A DNA stretch of 64,000 nucleotides from a virus (taxonomy: Duplodnaviria > Caudoviricetes): positions 3,864 through 67,863 of IMG/VR virus record IMGVR_UViG_3300033066_002031. One strand, 5' to 3'. Under the pieces are notes generated by a model. That model saw only the letters and a list, made by a program, of their open reading frames with translations. It made no database searches and had not been told where the DNA came from. The translations under genes were made by a program, and so were the position numbers. Of this stretch, positions 2,999 through 40,600 are shown one piece after another. The first letter of the stretch is position 1, and every line of letters starts with the position of its first letter.

Positions 2999-3125
2999 GT
3001 CAGGAGGCGGAATCGAATGTGCGGGCTGCATTGCTCATAAATTTCCCCGCAAGGGGTTGACCACACAGTCGGTAGGATGCTGCCCTCATAAAGCAGAGAC
3101 GGCGGTTCGATTCCGCCTCCTGGCA
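2999..3125 (+). pseudogene. Chimeric tRNA-Met(CAT)-like element: tRNA 3' three-quarters preceded by a CRISPR-repeat-like hairpin and a 19-nt self-antisense segment
   Basis: D-loop AGTCGGTA, anticodon loop CTCATAA, T arm GGCGG-TTCGATT-CCGCC and acceptor 3' strand TCCTGGC are present. The 5' D-stem strand is missing, and 2999-3017 is complementary to the T loop/acceptor strand (3106-3124). Confidence 0.55.
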
Positions 3126-3139
3126 TTAAGGAGACGACG

Positions 3140-3493
3140 ATGACGCTCGACGATCTGAAGGCTGACATCGCCAGCGACATCCCGAGTGACGGGACGCCGC
3201 AGTTTGGGATCATACTGCTGATGGTGATCGGTGCGTTGGTCAGCGAAATCATCCACTGGATCTTCAAGCGGTACACCGACAAGCGGGAAGCCGCCGCCCA
3301 GTGCGTCGTCTACTTCCAGCACTTCGGTCCCATCAAGCGAGTTGCCCTGGTCGCCAGGGCTGTGGCGCTGAAGCATCGCTTCGGCGTCGTCTCGACGTCG
3401 AACGAGAAGATCGTCGATACCACCGTCGGGAAGCTCCGCACCTTGTCGGCGGACGACTTCCTGGCTCTCGCGAAGAACATCGGAGCGGCGTGA
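3140..3493 (+). CDS. Hypothetical protein with one hydrophobic segment
   Basis: AAGGAG RBS, 117 aa. Confidence 0.65.
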   Translation: MTLDDLKADIASDIPSDGTPQFGIILLMVIGALVSEIIHWIFKRYTDKREAAAQCVVYFQHFGPIKRVALVARAVALKHRFGVVSTSNEKIVDTTVGKLRTLSADDFLALAKNIGAA

Positions 3494-7949: not shown

Positions 7950-8424
7950 GTCGCAACACTACAAACTCCGTCAGGAGTTGACCACGCATCCTTGCCTCCG
8001 ATGTAAATAGATAGGTTCTCGCGTCGCAACACTACAAACTCCGTCAGGAGTTGACCACTACATGGATCAGGACAGCGTCCGCGAGCCCGTCGGGGAGTCG
8101 CAACACTACAAACTCCGTCAGGAGTTGACCACTACATGGATCAGGACAGCGTCCGCGAGCCCGTCGGGGAGTCGCAACACTACAAACTCCGTCAGGAGTT
8201 GACCACGCTACCATGCAGCCCATCGATGCGAACGTGCCGATAACTGTCGCAACACTACAAACTCCGTCAGGAGTTGACCACTGGTGAACCGTGTTAGCAA
8301 GCTCTCCACAGTGGGCGTCGCAACACTACAAACTCCGTCAGGAGTTGACCACGAGTCGATCGTGACCGAGCCGCCGGAGCCGGTCAGGGTCGCAACACTA
8401 CAAACTCCGTCAGGAGTTGACCAC
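7950..8424 (+). CRISPR. CRISPR array: 7 identical 36-nt repeats GTCGCAACACTACAAACTCCGTCAGGAGTTGACCAC, 6 spacers (37, 38, 38, 39, 35, 36 nt)
   Basis: Repeats start at 7950, 8023, 8097, 8171, 8246, 8317, 8389; internal hairpin AACTCC-GTCA-GGAGTT; spacers 2 and 3 identical; no cas gene nearby. Confidence 0.97.
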
Positions 8425-8572
8425 CAACAAAACTGTTCCGCGCAAGGGGCTGTTCACAGCCGATGGAACTGTAACACTATTATCCCCTGCAAAGGGTTGA
8501 CCACAGTACGCACCACGGGCTTTCCGTGCTTTCGTCTGCAACACAAATAACCCCGCAAGGGGCTCGTCGTAC
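8425..8572 (+). repeat. Diverged repeat-like units trailing the array
   Basis: 8469-8504 CTGTAACACTATTATCCCCTGCAAAGGGTTGACCAC and 8534-8572 GTCTGCAACACAAATAACCCCGCAAGGGGCTCGTCGTAC keep the GYAACAC start and a hairpin, now with a GCAA loop; only the first keeps the GTTGACCAC end. Confidence 0.65.
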
Positions 8573-10580: not shown

Positions 10581-10651
10581 CCCCCGGTGGTGAAATGGTA
10601 TGACACATGCTCGACACGCATGAGTAGAAGGTTCGATTCCTTCCTGGGGGA
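10581..10651 (+). tRNA. tRNA-Val(GAC), C at position 33
   Basis: CCCCCGG/CTGGGGG+A; CATGC-TCGACAC-GCATG; GAAGG-TTCGATT-CCTTC. Confidence 0.7.
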
Positions 10652-10676
10652 CTTTACCAACCAGTCCTGGAGCAAT

Positions 10677-11134: not shown

Positions 11135-11208
11135 GGGGGTTGTGATGTAATTGGATAGCATCCCTGATTGTGCGTCAGGTCGTGCCGGTTCGAGTCCGGT
11201 CAAGCCTA
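11135..11208 (+). tRNA. tRNA-His(GTG), imperfect acceptor stem
   Basis: CCTGA-TTGTGCG-TCAGG; GCCGG-TTCGAGT-CCGGT; possible G-1; one G-G mismatch in the acceptor stem. Confidence 0.7.
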
Positions 11209-11209
11209 C

Positions 11210-12493
11210 TGGGTGTGTTTTGCATACAGACAATCAGAATTAGCAACATGAGAATTCACAAGAGCTTCAAAACTGAACTTGACCCAAACGATAAACAGCG
11301 GACGCTTTTCCTTAAAAATGCCGGAGTTGCCCGATTTGCCTACAATTGGGGCTTGCATCAAGCACAACAAGCTCAGGCGAATGGTCAAAAAAGACCTCGA
11401 TATTTTGAACTCAACCGTCGTCTGAATTTGCTTAAAAAAACAGAATTCCCATGGATGTACGAAGTGTCTAAGTGTGCTCCTCAGGGAGCTTTGCAGGATC
11501 TCGAAGAGGCGTTCAAAAGATTTTTCAAGAATTGCAATCTGAAAAATAAGGGTGGTTTCAAGAGCAAAAACGGTTTTCCCAGGTTCAAAAACAAAAAAAA
11601 CGGTGTTGGCGGCTTTCGACTGACAGGGTCTATCTATGTTTTTGCCGATGCGATCCAAATTCCCAAAATTGGCAAGGTGCGTCTGAAAGAGCGTGGCTAT
11701 ATTCCGACAGACGCTAAAATTCTCAATATTACCGTCACAGAGCGCGCTGGACGTTGGTTCGTCTCGGTGCTGATTGAAGCAGAACTGCCCGAGCCGTCTG
11801 CTAAGCCTGTTGCTGTTGCTGGCGTTGATCTTGGTATCAAAACGCTCGCGACCTGTAGCGACGGCGTGACGTTCCGGCACTCCAAGGCTTTGCAGGAAAG
11901 CCTCCAAAAACTCAGGCGGCTTAGCCGCCTTGTGTCACGCAAGAAGAAAGGCGGTGCCAACCGGAGGAAAGCCGTAGCCAAACTCGGGAAGCTTCACAAG
12001 CGGATTAGTGACATCCGGAACGACACGCTTCACAAGGTCACGACGCACCTGGCGAAAACCAAGTCGGTCGTCGTGATCGAAGACCTTAACGTCTCCGGCA
12101 TGCTCAAAAACCGTTGTCTCGCCAGAGCCATCAGCGATGTCGGGTTCGGCGAGTTCCGTCGTCAGATGGAGTACAAAGGCTCCTGGTACGGCTGCAAAGT
12201 CATCGTCGCTGATAGGTTTTTCCCGTCGTCGAAGATGTGCTGCAAGTGCGGCGAAGTCAAAATCGACCTATCTTTGTCAGAAAGGATCTTTGTTTGTGAA
12301 TGTGGCAATGTGATTGACCGCGATTTGAATGCCGCAATCAATCTTGAGCGATACTGTACCGCCGGTTCGGCGGGAATCTACGCCTGCGGAGAATCGGGCT
12401 CTGGGCTCGGCTCGCAAGAGTAGAGTGTAACCGGATTCGTTGAAGCAGGAAGCGGACTGCAAGCTACAACTTGCGTAAGTTCCGCAGAACAGG
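11210..12493 (+). mobile_element. Non-autonomous tnpB-only insertion element (ends approximate) with omega-RNA region at the right end
   Basis: No tnpA; visibly AT-richer than the flanks; right-end features GCCTGCGGAG..GAAGCAGGAA..AACTT-GCGT-AAGTT..GAACAGG. Confidence 0.6.
11248..12423 (+). CDS. tnpB: TnpB RNA-guided endonuclease (IS200/IS605 or IS607 type), RuvC intact
   Basis: HTH start KTELDPNDKQ..ARFAYNWGL; RuvC-I GVDLGIK, RuvC-II IEDLNV, Zn ribbon CCKCG..CECG, RuvC-III DRDLNAAINL. Confidence 0.93.
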   Translation: MRIHKSFKTELDPNDKQRTLFLKNAGVARFAYNWGLHQAQQAQANGQKRPRYFELNRRLNLLKKTEFPWMYEVSKCAPQGALQDLEEAFKRFFKNCNLKNKGGFKSKNGFPRFKNKKNGVGGFRLTGSIYVFADAIQIPKIGKVRLKERGYIPTDAKILNITVTERAGRWFVSVLIEAELPEPSAKPVAVAGVDLGIKTLATCSDGVTFRHSKALQESLQKLRRLSRLVSRKKKGGANRRKAVAKLGKLHKRISDIRNDTLHKVTTHLAKTKSVVVIEDLNVSGMLKNRCLARAISDVGFGEFRRQMEYKGSWYGCKVIVADRFFPSSKMCCKCGEVKIDLSLSERIFVCECGNVIDRDLNAAINLERYCTAGSAGIYACGESGSGLGSQE

Positions 12494-17386: not shown

Positions 17387-17794
17387 ATGCGTTGTTTCGT
17401 TATAGTTATTGCTTTTCTGTTCACGTCGGTTTCGATCTCTCACTTCCGCTATTTGCAGAAGCTGGAAACCAAGATCGAAATGATGGAGTCGTACGTCGAC
17501 CAGTCCCGCAAAGAATTGGCGACGCTGACGCGGCTCAACGATCTGCAAGCGGGGCATATGAGCCTCATAGTCGAGACGCAGATGCGGCTCATGCACCGCG
17601 TCGTCCCCCATGTGTCGACGAACAACTACTGCCCCGACTGCGTCGAATACAAGCAGCACATCGACAAGGTCACGAGCGATTTCGAATCTCACGCAGGCGA
17701 CACGGGCAGGACCGAGACGCAGCGTGTCAAGGAGCGAGTCCTCAACGCGATGGCAATGCCAGAGCGGGAGGTCTACGACGGAGAAGACCAGTGA
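17387..17794 (+). CDS. Membrane-anchored coiled-coil hypothetical protein
   Basis: N-terminal hydrophobic helix, heptad region, CPDC motif. Confidence 0.6.
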
Positions 17795-18225
17795 GAATCG
17801 AGATCAGCAGGAAGGACGTCCTCCGAGCGACATTTAGAGCCGGGGGACCTGGCGGGCAGAATCAGAACAAGGTCGAGACGGCGGTGCGGCTGACTCACCT
17901 ACCAACCGGCGTCGTAGCCGAATCGAGGGTCGAGCGGACCCAGGAAGGCAATGAGCAAAGAGCCTGGAAGCTGCTCATTTGCAAGATCGTAAAATCCCAC
18001 GAAGATCGTCTTGCCAACGAGAGGCGAGACAGGTATAATGCAAAAGCCGACGCAGCTTTCGGCAGCCAGATTCGCACGTACGTCCTCGACGGCGGCAAAC
18101 CCCGCGTCGTCGATCACGTCACGGACGTCAAGGCTGATCCAAACGACGTCGTCTTCAAGGGGCGTCTCGACGCCCTCATCACGGCGAACATGATCTTCAG
18201 GCACAGAAAACAAGCAAAATCGTGA
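17791..18225 (+). CDS. Stand-alone GGQ peptidyl-tRNA hydrolase (release-factor catalytic domain, PrfH/ArfB-like)
   Basis: [25 protein letters not shown] and SQIRTYVL. The GTG start overlaps the upstream stop (GTGA), and there is no N-terminal codon-recognition domain. Confidence 0.85.
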
Positions 18226-19052: not shown

Positions 19053-19081
19053 TTGACAACGGTTCCGAGTCGTGATAGGAT
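19053..19081 (+). promoter_or_regulatory. Sigma70 promoter for the ncRNA/tmRNA unit
   Basis: TTGACA-17 nt-TAGGAT. Confidence 0.75.
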
Positions 19082-19183: not shown

Positions 19184-19546
19184 GGGCGCGTTCTAGAATC
19201 GAATCGCGTCGAGACTGAGATACAGTGCGAGCCGTGCTTGGTCGAGCGGGCACGTTAAAAATCGACCGAAACCTTAGCTGCGAACGACACCGTTCCCTTC
19301 CGTCTCGCCGCCTGATCGGCGAGAGGATCGGACGCAAGGCTCCATCCTGGAGGGCTTTGCGTCCGAGCGTCAAACCAGGATAGGGCAGCGTCAGTTCTGA
19401 CCGGTCGCCGCCCGAAACAAAAACGCCAGATCGCCTGAAATGATTGTGCCGAGTGCAATCTTCAAGGCTAAACCTTCATTCGGAAACGCTCGTAGTGCTG
19501 GTCTTTGCCTGACCCGATGACAGCGGTGCAAGTCCGCTCGCGTCCA
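19184..19546 (+). ncRNA. ssrA: tmRNA, tag peptide ANDTVPFRLAA
   Basis: 5' GGGCGCG pairs with 3' CGCGTCC+A, including G3-U70; tag ORF 19280-19315 ends LAA-stop; T arm AGCGG-TGCAAGT-CCGCT. Confidence 0.92.
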
Positions 19547-19595
19547 ATTGATGCAAGCTGTTTGTTCGCAAGGTCTTATAGCTAGAAAGGTTGCC

Positions 19596-20289: not shown

Positions 20290-20586
20290 ATGGTCACGTT
20301 GACGAAATTTCGCGAGAAGCCATTCGTCGCCGGAAGCAATGACGACCCCGTCTATCTCTTCCTCGACCCCAGGACGGGCAACATCTTGTTCCCTGGTCCT
20401 GCGTCGATTCATGCTCCAAGCAAACGATTCGCCTTGCGACAAGAAGACGCATACAGCGAAGTCGTGCTGGAGGTGCAGATCGACGGAGGTCGCGTTGTTC
20501 TCGACCTGGCTTACGTCGCCGACATGGCGGCGGCTGAGGAATGGGTCGAATCGGCGAACGAGTTCCTGGCTTTATTTGTCCAGTAA
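20290..20586 (+). CDS. Hypothetical protein
   Basis: AAGGGG RBS; 98 aa. Confidence 0.6.
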   Translation: MVTLTKFREKPFVAGSNDDPVYLFLDPRTGNILFPGPASIHAPSKRFALRQEDAYSEVVLEVQIDGGRVVLDLAYVADMAAAEEWVESANEFLALFVQ

Positions 20587-20592
20587 AACGAC

Positions 20593-20749
20593 ACCCGCCT
20601 AGCTCAGTCGGCAGAGCACCGACGAAACGATGGTCTCATGTTGGCGGAATTCGGGCGACGGTGTACAACGCCGTCCGCGTGACTCCAATGTGTGGCATGA
20701 TCACATCGTGACGTGTCGGAGGTCCGTGGTTCGATCCCATGGGCGGGTA
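20593..20749 (+). ncRNA. tRNA-like RNA 1 with a 91-nt insert replacing the anticodon loop
   Basis: ACCCGCC/GGCGGGT+A; TA-GCTC-AGTCGGCA-GAGC; CCGAC[20624-20714]GTCGG; AGGTC; CGTGG-TTCGATC-CCATG. Confidence 0.8.
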
Positions 20750-20760
20750 CTCTTACTGAC

Positions 20761-20924
20761 ACCCGGTTAGCTCAACTGGTTAGAGCGCCGTCCCCTGGAT
20801 GGTGGACCCGGTCGTGGAGCCGCAGGAGGTTGCGCAGCCTCCGGTAGCGACGAAACGGCATGGTCTGCACGATCGAATCCGGGAACATGGCGGAGGCTGC
20901 GAGGTTCGAATCCCGCACCGGGTA
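20761..20924 (+). ncRNA. tRNA-like RNA 2 with a 96-nt insert replacing the anticodon loop
   Basis: ACCCGGT/ACCGGGT+A; TA-GCTC-AACTGGTTA-GAGC; CCGTC[20793-20888]GGCGG; AGGCT; T loop TTCGAAT. Confidence 0.8.
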
Positions 20925-20949
20925 CTTCTACTTATGGAGCAGCAACGTA

Positions 20950-21345
20950 ATGCGTTTCCTAACGTGGCGAGAGCGGCTCGGTCGTCCCGAATGCCCTTAC
21001 ATGACGCGGTGGGCGATCAACTTCGGGCTGTTCTCGTTACGCATCCACCATTGGCATAGCTCCGACGACCACCGCTACTACCACGACCATCCCTGGTGGT
21101 TCGTAACATTGGTGCTCAAGGGCTCCTACACCGACGTCTCCGACGATGGTCGCGAGGCGATGACGCCCGGCTCGATCCGCTGTCGACCCGCCCTGCACCG
21201 CCACACCGTGGAGGTCGCGGACGGCGGCTGCTGGACCGTGCTGCTGACCGGCAAGGTCGTGCGGAGATGGGGCTTCTGGGTCAACGGCAAATTTAAAAAG
21301 ACGAACAAGTATTTTCTTGAGCACGGTCATCATCCGTGCAAGTAA
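20950..21345 (+). CDS. Cupin-fold protein
   Basis: HDHPWWFVTLVLKGSY...HRHTVE...WTVLLTG cupin motifs. Confidence 0.7.
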   Translation: MRFLTWRERLGRPECPYMTRWAINFGLFSLRIHHWHSSDDHRYYHDHPWWFVTLVLKGSYTDVSDDGREAMTPGSIRCRPALHRHTVEVADGGCWTVLLTGKVVRRWGFWVNGKFKKTNKYFLEHGHHPCK

Positions 21346-21346
21346 T

Positions 21347-21420
21347 GCCTCCGGAGTGTGTTGGTCAGCACGCAACGACTTCGAGCGTTGTAGTTCGGGT
21401 TCGAATCCCGACGGAGAGCA
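21347..21420 (+). tRNA. Atypical tRNA (TCG/Arg-like) with 8-nt anticodon loop and bulged acceptor stem
   Basis: GCCTCCG/CGGAGAGC; CAACG-ACTTCGAG-CGTTG; TCGGG-TTCGAAT-CCCGA. Confidence 0.6.
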
Positions 21421-21440
21421 ATCCGGGAATAGAGGTCAAA

Positions 21441-22031
21441 ATGATTTTCGAGTCGCACATCACCGTCGAAGGCGTTTCGCTGCCGCGATTCAAGGCGATG
21501 TGCCGCCAGGCAGACGTCAAGCCGGTGCATATCGTCAGCGACACGGGCTCCGGCGTCGAGCAGTTGATGTCGGCTCACTTCCATCATGTGCGGAGCTTCC
21601 CGCAGGCGTATGCCGAGATGGAGGATCTCTGCCGAACGTTCCATCCAGCCGTAGTCCGATCCAAGCTCGAATACATCCCGCGACCCAAGGACGTCGACCC
21701 GCCGACGATCTTCCTGTACGAAGAATGGCATTTCAAGTTCGAGGTGGCGTTCGACTACGTCGAGACGCTGCGGAATCTCGCCGCATCGGCGGGATTCAAG
21801 ACCTCGATCAACGCCGTGCGGCAGCCCCAGGATTCCGAGACGATGTTCGTCTTCGCCACCACGAGGAGCCGCGAGTCGAGCGAATCATTTCGCGATTCGC
21901 TGTTCGGCGTCGAGACGCTTTACTGGAAGCCGATCAACTCGATCCACGAATGCGTGGTGTATGACTCCAATCCTGGGGTCGACCGCTACTGGTTTTGCGA
22001 CTGCCCGTTGAAATCCACCGATCGGATCTGA
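21441..22031 (+). CDS. Hypothetical protein
   Basis: GAGG RBS; followed by terminator ACCGCCG/CGGCGGT + T tract (~22058-22086). Confidence 0.65.
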   Translation: MIFESHITVEGVSLPRFKAMCRQADVKPVHIVSDTGSGVEQLMSAHFHHVRSFPQAYAEMEDLCRTFHPAVVRSKLEYIPRPKDVDPPTIFLYEEWHFKFEVAFDYVETLRNLAASAGFKTSINAVRQPQDSETMFVFATTRSRESSESFRDSLFGVETLYWKPINSIHECVVYDSNPGVDRYWFCDCPLKSTDRI

Positions 22032-22124
22032 CTGGCGTACAATCAAGGACGGATCTGAACCGCCGGAGAGATTCGGCGGTTTTTTTGTTGAAATGTGTTG
22101 CATTCGTCAAATCGAGGCGACATA

Positions 22125-37657: not shown

Positions 37658-40600
37658 TCACGAGGAACATCCGAATATTGCGATTTCGTATTGGATCGAC
37701 GCGATCCCGCCGTCGAGCTTGATCTGGTCAGCCGTCGAAGCCGTCACCGGATACCCCGTCGCGAGCGGCGAACTGAGCACCAGGAAACCGCTCGGTCCGA
37801 TTTTGATCTTTGCGGACGTGCTGCTATTGAATACATTAGCCCATCCGTTCGAGGCTGCCGGGGAAAACCACAGATCCTCCCCGTCGGTCTCGGAGTCGTT
37901 GATGATCGCGATGGCTTTGATCCGCACGCAGTCGACCGAATCGCCGAAAATCGTCTTCAGAACCCCGTTCAGGTCGATCACGTCAGCCGCCAGGATCGCC
38001 GTCGAGGTCGTCGGCGGAAGCACGCTCCACACGCCGGGAACCGAGGTCGTCGTGCTCGTCACGCCCGCCGCGTACAGCGACTCGGATTCGGCGCCGCCGC
38101 CGACTCCCGAAAGGTAGATGTTGTATCCCGTCGCCCCGGCGCCGAGACCCGGCAGCGTGATCGATGGGATGTTGCCCGCCGTGACAGCGAACGTCGCCTG
38201 AGGCGCAGCCGTCGTTTCGCCGTTGGCGTTGATGTACGTATAGGTCAAGTAATACGTGCCCGAGGCGAGCTTTCCGCCCGTAAATCCCGCCCCGGAACCC
38301 ACTACCGTCGCCGCCGTCGCAGGCGCCGTGACGAGGCATCCGTTCAACGAAGGCTTCGCGACCGACGTCGTCGCCGTCGTCATGTCGTACAGCGTGCTCG
38401 CCGCCGTCGAGAGCGATGTCGAGGCGTAGAACGTCTCTTGCCCCGTGGCTCCGCCCGGTCCGGTGACGTAGACGTTGCCGCTCGAAACGCCCTGCGGCAC
38501 GGCTGGGATCGTGACTCGCGGGATGTTGCCCGACGCGACCGTGAAAGAAACTTCGGGGCTCGCCGTTGTTTCTCCGACGGAATTTACATAAGTGAAAACA
38601 AGCTTGTATGTACCGGCTGACATCAAGCCGCCGACCGAGCCGCCGCCCGTCGCCGAGACCGTGGGAGCCGATACGGGAGCCGCGATCGTCGCCGTGTTGA
38701 CCAGTGGTATGGTCGTGCCGGACGACAAGGTCGACAGGTCGTAGTTTCCAGGAGAAACGCCGAAGGCGTACAACGATTGCGTGCCGTCGGAGCCGTTGGC
38801 TGGCGTGAGGTAGAGCTTCGCCGCAGACGCCCCGGAAGGGAGCGAAGGGATCGTGACCCTGGGAATGTTCCCGGACGCGATCGTGAACGACGTCGCTGGG
38901 CTCGTGGTGGTCTCGCCGATGCCCGATCCGGTGGAGCTTGGATAGCCGTTGATGACGGTGTATCGCAGCGAGTAGGAACCTGCCGCCAGCAGACCGCCTA
39001 CCGAGCCGCCGCCCGTGGCGTTGACCGTCGCGGCGACGGACGGCGGTGACACGGAAGCCGTGCTGGTCGCCGGACTCGTCCTCGAAGGATGCGCCGTCGC
39101 CATCGTGTAGAGCGTCGTCGCCGAGCTTATGGGCGTCGTATTGTACTTGACGAGCGTCGCCGTCGTCCCATTGACCGCCGAGAGGTAGACGTTGACCCCG
39201 GTGGACAGCGTCGACGCGATCGACGACGGGTTGAACGAGGGGATGTTGCCAGCCGCCACCGTGAAAGTACCGGCTGTGGTGTTGGTCTTGGTCTCGCCGT
39301 TGGCGTTGACGAGCGACATGGAATAGCGGTACGTACCGGCTGGGAGCAGCCCGCCCGCAGCGCCGCCGCCCGTCGCCGTGATCGTCGCCGCCGACCCCGG
39401 ATCGCTTACTTTGTAGGTCGCGGTGAGCGGGATGGTGACGCTGCCGGACAATGATTGGAGCGTAAACGTGCCGGTGCTGATCGACGCGCTGGCGAGCACG
39501 CGGACTTCGCTCAGGGACGCGCCGCCGGAAGCGGTGCAGTAGATGTTCGCCGTCGTTATGCCGGCAGGCGCGGCGGGGATCACGACCTGGATAGCCGCGT
39601 TGACGCCGCCGACCAGGGTATGCACCAGGGTCGTCTCGGGACCGATCAGCGTCTCGTTGGAACCGCTGTTGTATGTGTACGTGAGGATGTAGGTGCCTGG
39701 GGCGATGCTCGAAATGCCGCTCGCGACCGACGTGCATGCCAGGGCTCCAACGGGCGGCGACACGACAGCCGTGCTCGTCGACAGCGGGACGTAGTAGGTC
39801 AGCGGATACGGGATGTCGAAATAGCTTCCTGTCGTGCTGCCGTAATACGTCTCCGTACCGGCGGCTCTGCCAGCGAGCGTGATGTAGACGTTCGTCGTCA
39901 CGCCGGACGTCGGCGGAGACGGGACGAAGATCCTCGGGATGTTGCCCAACGACGACGTGAACGACGTGCGTGGGCTTCCGAGCGTCTCGCCGTTGGCGTT
40001 GGACCACGTATACGAGACTAGGTACGTGCCCGCCGGAAGCGTACCCGTCAGAGAGCCGCCGGACGAGACCACCGTCGCAGCCGAACTCGGCGCGCTCAGC
40101 ACCGCCACGTTGACCACCGGCGGAGCCAGGCTCGCCGCCGACATGTCGTACGTCGTCGTCGAAATCCCCGTGGCGTAATAGACGACGCTGAATTGAGTGC
40201 CGCCAGGCGCGTTCAGATACAGCTTGATGCCGCTTGCGCCGGTCGGGAGAGCCGGAAGCGTCACGCGGGGGATGTTGCCGGACGCGATCGTGAATTGAGC
40301 CGACGACGGCGACGGCGGGGTTTCGCCGAGCGCCGTGTAGAAGCTGTACTGGCAGTAGTAGCTCCCGGCGAGCATGCTGCCGCCTCCGGAGCCGCCGCCC
40401 GTGGGGCTGACCGTGGGCGCCGACGTCGGCGCCGTCAGGAGAGCCGTGCTCGCCGTCGGAGGCGGCGTCGTGAACGCAGCCGTGAGGTCGTAGGTGGAAC
40501 CCGTGACGCCCGATGCGTACAGCCGCTCGCTGCCCGATCCGCCCGTCGCCAGCGACAGATAGATCGTGTAGCTCGTGACGCCGACCGGGAGCGAGCCCAG

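Follow-up and report, generated by a model that had tools for sequence, protein, structure and literature searches.

A tandem pair of valine-type tRNA-like genes with expanded anticodon arms in a phage genome, and a candidate family of non-decoding tRNA mimics

Two tRNA bodies with interrupted anticodon arms

Two genes resembling transfer RNAs (tRNAs), here called RNA1 and RNA2, lie in tandem with an 11-nt spacer in a 64,000-nucleotide window of phage DNA, which comprises bases 3864-67863 of the 67.9-kb IMG/VR virus record IMGVR_UViG_3300033066_002031 (labelled G000 here; estimated completeness 88%). Each combines a well-formed tRNA body with a long structured insert in its anticodon arm, and the pair sits directly 5' of a small cupin gene (Table 1). 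Here we describe these genes together with the valine-type tRNA-like genes found at the same address in related loci (L numbers), and weigh a tentative reading of the family as stable, non-decoding tRNA mimics against accounts based on splicing, Y RNAs and gene decay.

With introns allowed, ARAGORN calls RNA1 at 20593-20750 as Val(GAC) with an 84-nt insert and RNA2 at 20761-20925 with an 89-nt insert. This and our own parse confirm what a sequence-only reading of the locus had proposed, namely two tRNA bodies whose anticodon-stem strands stand 91 nt (RNA1) and 96 nt (RNA2) apart. Default ARAGORN and Rfam at the gathering score call nothing at 20593-20925; against Rfam RF00005 both RNAs fall below the 29-bit gathering threshold and go unreported even at E<=10, and the RNA1/RNA2 locus has no blastn match among cultured phages. 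Insert-bearing relatives described below score above the RF00005 threshold (L093, 41 bits; L065, 46.9; L155, 50; L063, 33.4).

The bodies themselves are regular. Acceptor stems are perfect over 7 bp (ACCCGCC/GGCGGGT in RNA1, ACCCGGT/ACCGGGT in RNA2), and both RNAs have G18G19 in the D arm, a variable loop of AGGUC type, a TTCGAxx T loop and A73. The Levitt pair 15:48 covaries between the two genes, being G15:C48 in RNA1 and A15:U48 in RNA2, and every element of an RF00005 body (7-bp acceptor, G18G19 D arm, TTCRAxx T loop, 15:48 pair) is present in each. The earlier description of near-textbook acceptor, D, variable and T regions holds apart from the RNA2 T stem, which has a bulged A. It is the anticodon arm that departs from a canonical tRNA: both arms begin with a 5-bp stem (CCGAC/GUCGG in RNA1, CCGUC/GGCGG in RNA2), and neither bears on it a 7-nt hairpin loop with U33.

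In both G000 genes a structured module of ~85-90 nt lies exactly between positions 31 and 32 and replaces the 5' half of the loop, so that the helix runs on continuously and the anticodon protrudes from its 3' side in a bulge of 5-7 nt. In the fold of RNA1 the anticodon heptamer occupies the 3' side, flanked by the closing helix of the insert and the 3' anticodon-stem strand, and is at most partly paired; in that of RNA2, AACAU remains as a 3'-side bulge. Most of the helices previously claimed recur in the minimum-free-energy folds (ACGAUG/CAUCGU, UCAUG/CAUGA and the ACGGUG hairpin in RNA1; CCUGGAU/AUCCGGG and GGAGGUU/AGCCUCC in RNA2), whereas GGUCGUG/CACGAUC, claimed for RNA2, is in competition with GUGGACC/GGUCUGC. 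Folding of the whole molecules gives only modest z-scores (-1.8 and -1.4). The claim that excision leaves no clean U33 loop is right for RNA2, where the product is GGAACAU, or CCCUGAU in the ARAGORN register, but wrong for RNA1, in which removal of 84 nt gives the U33 loop GUGACGU.

The inserts share the motif GACGAAACG(GC)ATGGTCT, whose two copies had already been noticed; the exact pattern (16/18 nt) occurs twice in the 64-kb window and in none of 100 shuffles. It forms part of a looser similarity, ~35 nt long by eye, which stands at the 5' start of the RNA1 insert, overlapping the anticodon stem, and at the 3' end of the RNA2 insert. The significance of the motif comes from this exact-pattern shuffle test and not from local alignment: with the stem excluded, the two inserts align with a score of 19, which 103 of 2000 shuffles reach and which is not significant alone. 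An exact-motif scan of viral contigs returned 35 matches, all single-copy and in apparently unrelated, mostly coding sequence, about the number expected by chance, and a hidden Markov model of the block run against all fetched DNA found the G000 copies and one element of record G002 only. The loop of the inner hairpin of RNA1 (UGUACAA) is also the anticodon-loop heptamer of the insert-less relative L057-2, and GGTGTACAAC is a hairpin loop in the L044/L063 insert too; across the whole set the shared 10-mer is not itself significant, nor is the enrichment of GTAC/UGUACA in inserts (8 observed versus 4.75 expected, a value reached by 215/2000 shuffles).

The inserts belong to no known intron or ribozyme class that we could recognize. 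A sensitive Rfam scan of 20400-21500 (E<=10) returned no intron, ribozyme or other family within them, and a scan of 16 related loci gave no intron or ribozyme match in the inserts there; a match to a known intron or Rfam family, which the sequence-only reading had itself named as speaking against it, was found for the inserts in neither search. Group I introns are ~200 nt or longer and have a P3-P9 catalytic core, and inserts of only 84 and 89 nt with no Rfam core match are rejected as such. Introns of the archaeal/eukaryal tRNA kind are rejected as well, the folds having no bulge-helix-bulge and just one bulge, of 5-7 nt, which lies on the 3' side; on both counts the earlier reading is upheld by size, Rfam scan and folds. 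A hammerhead ribozyme, with its CUGANGA and GAAA cores around three helices and cleavage after helix III, was also considered: GACGAAAC...GUC resembles half of its core, but no compatibly placed CUGANGA and no Rfam ribozyme match accompany it.

Table 1. Features at and around the RNA1/RNA2 locus, in window coordinates.
Feature	Position	Strand	Remarks
TROVE/Ro60 gene	in the arm from 1 to ~24 kb	+	715 aa; G000:C1:3263-5410; only the 3' part lies inside the window
Stand-alone RF-1-domain (GGQ) protein	17392-18225		same arm as RNA1/RNA2
Sigma-70-like promoter match	19053-19081	+	TTGACA-17-TAGGAT; consensus match only; sole one upstream
Phage transfer-messenger RNA (tmRNA)	19184-19549		tag ANDTVPFRLAA; same arm as RNA1/RNA2
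RNA1, tRNA-Val(GAC)-like gene	20593-20749	+	ARAGORN with introns, own parse, fold
RNA1 acceptor stem	20593-20599/20742-20748
RNA1 D arm	20602-20617
RNA1 anticodon stem	20619-20623/20715-20719
Shared block, copy 1	20621-20655	+	exact motif 20621-20636, looser similarity to end CGGAAUUCGGG
RNA1 insert	20624-20707	+	84 nt; long irregular hairpin directly after position 31
RNA1 inner hairpin	20653-20678	+	loop UGUACAA
RNA1 anticodon heptamer	20708-20714	+	GUGACGU (U33, GAC, G37)
RNA1 T arm	20725-20741
RNA1 A73	20749
RNA2, tRNA-Val(AAC)-like gene	20761-20924	+	ARAGORN with introns, own parse
RNA2 acceptor stem	20761-20767/20917-20923
RNA2 D arm	20770-20786
RNA2 anticodon stem	20788-20792/20889-20893
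RNA2 insert	20793-20881	+	89 nt; closing helix CCUGGAU/AUCCGGG; hairpin GGAGGUU-GCGC-AGCCUCC (20825-20842)
Shared block, copy 2	20849-20883	+	exact motif 20849-20866, then GCACGAUCGAAUCCGGG
RNA2 anticodon heptamer	20882-20888	+	GGAACAU (G33, AAC, A37, U38)
RNA2 T arm	20899-20916		bulged A in stem
RNA2 A73	20924
Cupin gene	20950-21345	+	small, metal-binding; phrog_4786 'cysteine dioxygenase', TM1459-like fold; next gene after RNA2; conserved 3' neighbour of the tRNA-Val-like genes
Terminator-like hairpin	22057-22082	+	first one downstream; consensus match only

Valine-type relatives upstream of cupin genes

Homologues of the cupin were located at 35 loci in IMG/VR viral contigs and, among 164 relatives in metagenome contigs, 80 were kept. 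Parsing of <=400 nt upstream of these homologues yielded 38 distinct tRNA-like genes, 26 of them with A35-C36 in register, and it is these 26, chosen by A35-C36 directly before the 3' anticodon-stem strand, that we treat as the family. A37 is found in 19 and A73 in 23 of them. Each acceptor and anticodon-stem position is paired in 24-26 members, with 2-5 pair types per position, and at 15:48 there is G:C in 19 members and A:U in six. Position 33 is A in eight members, G in seven, C in six and U in five, and position 34 is A in 14; as controls, 55/65 ordinary phage tRNAs whose stem sequences are the same have U33 (Fisher p = 6e-9), as have 10 of the 11 other tRNAs of the G000 phage. Kept across the RNAs, then, are an L-shaped body, A35, C36, a purine at 37 and A73, while the anticodon loop is free to vary in its 5' half. 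The kept positions include the major known determinants of valyl-tRNA synthetase (ValRS), whose identity set for valine is A35, C36 and A73, with G45 as a minor element (PMC9976931); RNA1 (GAC-G37, A73) and RNA2 (AAC-A37, A73) both carry A35, C36 and A73.

Extra length is placed 5' of the anticodon in every family member and forms a continuum of 0-135 nt (0, 1, 2, 2, 3, 18, 24, 24, 30, 49, 50, 62, 63, 78, 84, 85 and 89 nt, with 107, 117, 123, 132 and 135 nt in the longest members); one further loop is only 6 nt long, and the smallest insert is a plain 18-nt hairpin. Arms with inserts share one fold, in which a 5-bp stem is followed by 0-2 nt on the 5' side, the closing helix of the insert and a 5-7-nt NAC bulge. 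The heptamer before the 3' strand is the same as the loop of insert-less relatives (AGUACAU in L068 and L073, UAAACAU in L084 and L063). The closest relatives, with cupins 66-69% identical to that of G000, have two tandem genes too, but these are insert-free, with loops ACAACGU and UGUACUA, or UUCAACGA and UGUACAA.

Three insert sub-families recur: one marked by GGGAGUAG...ACUCC in L095, L098 and L135, one by GAGGAC or GAAGAC with CUAGUACU in L083 and L093, and a third by the G000 block, which reappears in the element of G002. The inserts of L095 and L098 are nearly identical on divergent exons, and the closing helices of L083 and L093 differ by three compensatory pairs with their common loop motif kept. 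Together with the retention of the block in RNA1, RNA2 and G002, these comparisons indicate that the inserts are under selection.

A literature search found no description of a dedicated valine-like phage tRNA family without U33, of insertion at a fixed 31/32 site with the anticodon left bulged out, or of a tight link between a tRNA-Val-like gene and a cupin gene. This widespread family of phage valine-tRNA look-alikes is apparently undescribed.

Several further observations concern the setting of these genes. Insert-bearing tRNA-like genes lie 5' of a methylase-type gene plus cupin in Caulobacter, Brevundimonas and Rhizobium phages (methylase annotated in two of the three). In the cultured Paraglaciecola Antarctic GD virus 1 (MW805361; host Paraglaciecola sp. 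IceBac 372), a tRNA-Val(GAC)-like gene that has escaped annotation (L093:1168-1291, at about 113999-114122 in MW805361), whose insert measures 50 nt and whose CCA is encoded, is located between RNA ligase/phosphatase genes upstream (gp191, gp192) and the cupin gene (gp194). The cupin start codon falls -5 to +9 nt from the discriminator in 9/26 loci (e.g. L062:1424-1503, ...A-CU-AUG), so near that there is no room for a Shine-Dalgarno sequence, and processing by RNase Z or RNase P would leave a nearly leaderless mRNA. Record G002 has two tRNA-Ile-like genes (L049:1991-2135 and L049:2198-2377) in which a full CUGAUAC or CUAAUAC loop is followed by an insert of 50-104 nt; on both sides of the insert stands a directly repeated copy of the 3' anticodon-stem strand together with the variable loop (GAUGGAAGUC ... 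GAUGAAGGUC), the insertion site differs from that of the valine family, and one of the two has the G000 block. Genes for tRNAs with a CUA anticodon (amber suppressor type) stand beside the module in the related phages L042, L044, L049 and L067, and one cupin homologue (L045:3001-3381) has an in-frame stop codon; recoding of stop codons in the phages with CUA tRNAs is possible.

The surrounding gene arm and the phage Y RNAs

The plus-strand arm in which the locus lies (1 to ~24 kb) contains eleven ordinary tRNA genes and one tmRNA in a default ARAGORN run, encodes the RF-1-domain protein, a TnpB and an HNH protein, and carries a CRISPR-like array. The presence of a tmRNA in the phage points to a bacterial host. 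The promoter match 5' of the tmRNA is a possible start of a transcript running through the tmRNA, two open reading frames (ORFs), RNA1, RNA2 and the cupin gene. An AlphaFold model of the cupin (pLDDT 89) matches generic TM1459-type cupins only, and its structure matches hold no tRNA-related clue.

The array (7950-8441) consists of seven 36-nt repeats with 35-39-nt spacers, and its units at 8023-8096 and 8097-8170 are identical duplicates. We found no sequence relation of the tRNA inserts to these repeats or to other sequence in the window, the best match elsewhere being 19/21 in the same sense at 38865-38885 (E = 0.25). The TnpB-type ORF (11136-12423; OrfB_IS605 plus Cas12f1-like TNB domains) starts within the 3' end of a tRNA-His(GTG) gene. 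The phage's ordinary tRNA-Val(GAC), at 10581-10652, is itself without U33 (loop UCGACAC), and three other viral contigs (L188, L192, L209) have tRNA genes with a near-identical loop, UCGACAA. Valine-type genes make up 4/14 of the tRNA-type genes of this phage.

Two YrlA-like modules scoring 31 and 38 bits (L001:418-492 and L001:837-899; G000:C1 ~2693-2767 and 3112-3174) lie upstream of the window and directly upstream of the phage Ro60 gene. Their acceptor hairpins are closed and their flanks form covarying terminal stems (AACCAG/CUGGUU versus AACCGA/UCGGUU), and they are likely to be the Y RNAs of this phage. A permuted YrlA spread across RNA1 and RNA2 was considered and rejected. The sole Rfam hit to YrlA, at 20717-20791, scores 19.3 bits where the cut-off is 69, and its flanks are unpaired; it consists of the RNA1 T arm and acceptor strand, the spacer, and the RNA2 acceptor strand and D arm, and two such tandem tRNA genes can be partly accommodated by the core of the permuted YrlA model. 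Nor is the topology permuted, since each RNA has its own perfect 7-bp acceptor stem and cross-pairing of the RNA1 3' strand with the RNA2 5' strand reaches 6/7 only.

Stable mimics and the alternatives

The 1-3-nt extras cannot be introns, so the mature RNA must tolerate change in the 5' part of the loop. That tolerance, the loss of U33 and the commonness of A34 together argue that the members are not ordinary decoders but probably either mimics or tRNAs that undergo unusual processing. Because the major ValRS determinants are kept while the rules for decoding are broken, we favour, tentatively and at a little less than an even chance, a reading of RNA1 and RNA2 as tandem paralogues in a phage family of stable, non-decoding tRNA mimics with valine identity, in which the anticodon arm is expanded in modular fashion. 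RNase P and RNase Z would free the two RNAs from a polycistronic transcript, after which they would gain CCA and retain the insert. Host ValRS would bind and probably valylate them, and they would be unable to decode on the ribosome. The insert modules may serve as add-on binding surfaces, the ~35-nt block being common to both in G000, and the RNA, as a stable molecule, may function as decoy or adaptor for some factor that recognizes tRNA-Val. Candidates for this factor are ValRS and a host nuclease or sensor directed at tRNA-Val; Ro60 is a possible, unproven partner of the insert. In a fuller version of this scheme, valylatable but non-decoding tRNA-Val mimics would display a bulged anticodon beside an exchangeable structured module and would counter, as decoys or adaptors, a host system that recognizes or cleaves tRNA-Val, and in G000 the modules would recruit a specific protein, possibly Ro60; we consider this version as a whole unlikely.

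Several observations weigh against the mimic reading. The partner that the mimic would engage is a guess, and the minor valine determinant G20 is absent from both RNAs. Excision would leave a canonical U33 loop in three members (RNA1, L083 and L093), as an intron would, and the L093 gene has an annotated RNA ligase and phosphatase just upstream. At one and the same site, orthologues with identical anticodon stems (RNA1 versus L095/L098) have inserts unrelated to each other, a pattern that resembles the turnover of mobile elements more than slow expansion. These last three points favour a different account, in which the inserts are ribozyme-less, protein-dependent introns at 31/32 of phage tRNA-Val genes, cut out by a host or phage endonuclease and resealed by an RNA ligase to give tRNA-Val with unusual, perhaps anticodon-nuclease-resistant, loops. 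The presence and absence of inserts at one fixed site among orthologues would fit such introns, as would the complete 7-nt loop kept before the 3' stem strand and identical to the loops of insert-less relatives. To our knowledge, however, no bacterial enzyme excises hairpins of this sort, the smallest insert is just an 18-nt hairpin, and the inserts have neither a self-splicing core nor a bulge-helix-bulge. No RtcB, Rnl2-type ligase or splicing endonuclease (tRNA_int_endo) was found in the 88%-complete phage record. Most members, RNA2 among them, would still be without U33 after excision, and over half have A34; moreover, variation at the site does not need splicing, as the extras of 1-3 nt and the 6-nt loop demonstrate. 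In favour of introns, the share of valine genes in this phage and its U33-less ordinary tRNA-Val(GAC) fit pressure from a tRNA-Val-directed defence (the concept is that of PMC10264068), and 'enigmatic' introns in phage tRNAs are on record (PMC6784885). We regard splicing, which the sequence-only reading had also proposed, as rather unlikely, though it is the main rival and a serious contender, and prefer the chargeable-decoy idea of the same reading to it because of the family-wide valine identity set and the loss of U33. Decay is a further alternative: disrupted by insertion, the genes could be tRNA-Val pseudogenes maintained solely to signal RNase P/Z processing of the cupin mRNA, as the short distance between discriminator and cupin start and the lack of constraint in the 5' half of the loop would allow. 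Such a signal needs neither A35-C36 nor A73, yet these are kept beside cupins 43-69% identical to that of G000, and the inserts have compensatory changes and conserved blocks, which makes decay very unlikely.

The sequence-only reading had also pointed to Ro60, offering as one of its three hypotheses that the RNAs are unpermuted Y-RNA/tRNA chimeras, with the GACGAA-containing block binding the phage Ro60 and the tRNA body corresponding to the tRNA-like domain of YrlA. The phage does encode a TROVE protein, and the block does contain GNCGAA, the core of the YrlA motif GNCGAAN0-1G (PMC4201824; Rfam YrlA consensus acGGCGAAUGC), which lies near the 5' end of YrlA; in both RNAs, however, GACGAA is followed by AC and not by (N)G, so that the similarity ends before the N0-1G part. 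In RNA1 the motif is found on the strand of the arm next to the D arm, in RNA2 on the opposite strand, next to the T arm, and its pairing context differs between the two; the YrlA-like RNAs beside the phage Ro60 are without the shared motif. YrlA genes are found within 4 kb of Ro60, whereas RNA1 and RNA2 lie ~19-20 kb downstream of the TROVE gene on the same strand. In the relative G010/L065 the order is Ro60, ~0.8 kb, a YrlA-like RNA (38 bits), a tRNA-Val-like gene with a 30-nt insert and the cupin, and the YrlA of M. smegmatis is cut by RNase P and gains CCA, which gives an open acceptor end as in RNA1 and RNA2. A TROVE gene is present in 3/11 family records (G000 counted); none was seen in eight of the ten related records that were searched, of which one is 86% complete, and most family members carry other inserts or no insert at all. 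The link of RNA1 and RNA2 to Ro60 is thus weak, and the chimera, the weakest of the three hypotheses, seems to us improbable.

Among the closest systems already described are the 'enigmatic' tRNA introns of Lak megaphages (Devoto et al., 2019, PMC6784885), which like the inserts here add sequence in the anticodon region, fit no Rfam class and occur alongside alleles that lack them; the G000 family shares with them an anticodon-region insert of no known class and insert-free alleles at the same site. The Lak cases are predictions only, from AT-rich gut megaphages and in other tRNA species, whereas here the site is 31/32, the family is a dedicated valine-like one and its members are U33-less even without an insert. 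Group I introns of bacterial and phage tRNA anticodon loops likewise interrupt the anticodon region, but the inserts of this family are hairpins of 18-135 nt with no Rfam match. YrlA (Chen et al., 2014, PMC4201824; RF02553) combines a tRNA-like D/T/acceptor domain with a long irregular helix and GNCGAA, is encoded by Ro60-bearing phages and in some cases is an RNase P substrate given CCA. It is, however, circularly permuted and ends in the Ro-binding stem, with a closed acceptor hairpin, no anticodon and a position <=4 kb from Ro60; RNA1 and RNA2 have open acceptor ends, still carry a NAC anticodon with A73, are separated from Ro60 by ~20 kb and fall well short of the family cut-off score. The phage tRNAs proposed to evade anticodon nucleases (van den Berg et al., 2023, PMC10264068) also have anticodon loops off the host consensus, but through point changes in otherwise normally decoding molecules, unlike the loss of U33, common A34 and large inserted helices seen here. 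A parallel in function would be the valine tRNA-like structure of plant RNA viruses such as turnip yellow mosaic virus (PMC7749636, PMC9976931), a non-decoding viral mimic that also keeps A35 and C36. That structure is charged by host ValRS, as RNA1 and RNA2 probably would be; it is 3'-terminal in RNA genomes and has a pseudoknotted acceptor, in contrast to the DNA-phage genes described here, in which the cloverleaf body is standard and the anticodon bulges out.

The family can be recognized by a fixed genomic address, directly 5' of a small cupin gene, and by simple sequence rules (NAC plus A73, no U33, insert at 31/32), and its unannotated member in a cultured phage-host pair brings the question of its function within reach. 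If the inserts are spliced, they would reveal an undescribed protein-only route of tRNA splicing in bacteria or their phages. If the RNAs are stable mimics, DNA phages would be using a form of valine tRNA mimicry so far known from plant RNA viruses, equipped with a modular arm for extra partners, and the family would be a new type of player in the conflict between phages and hosts over tRNA.

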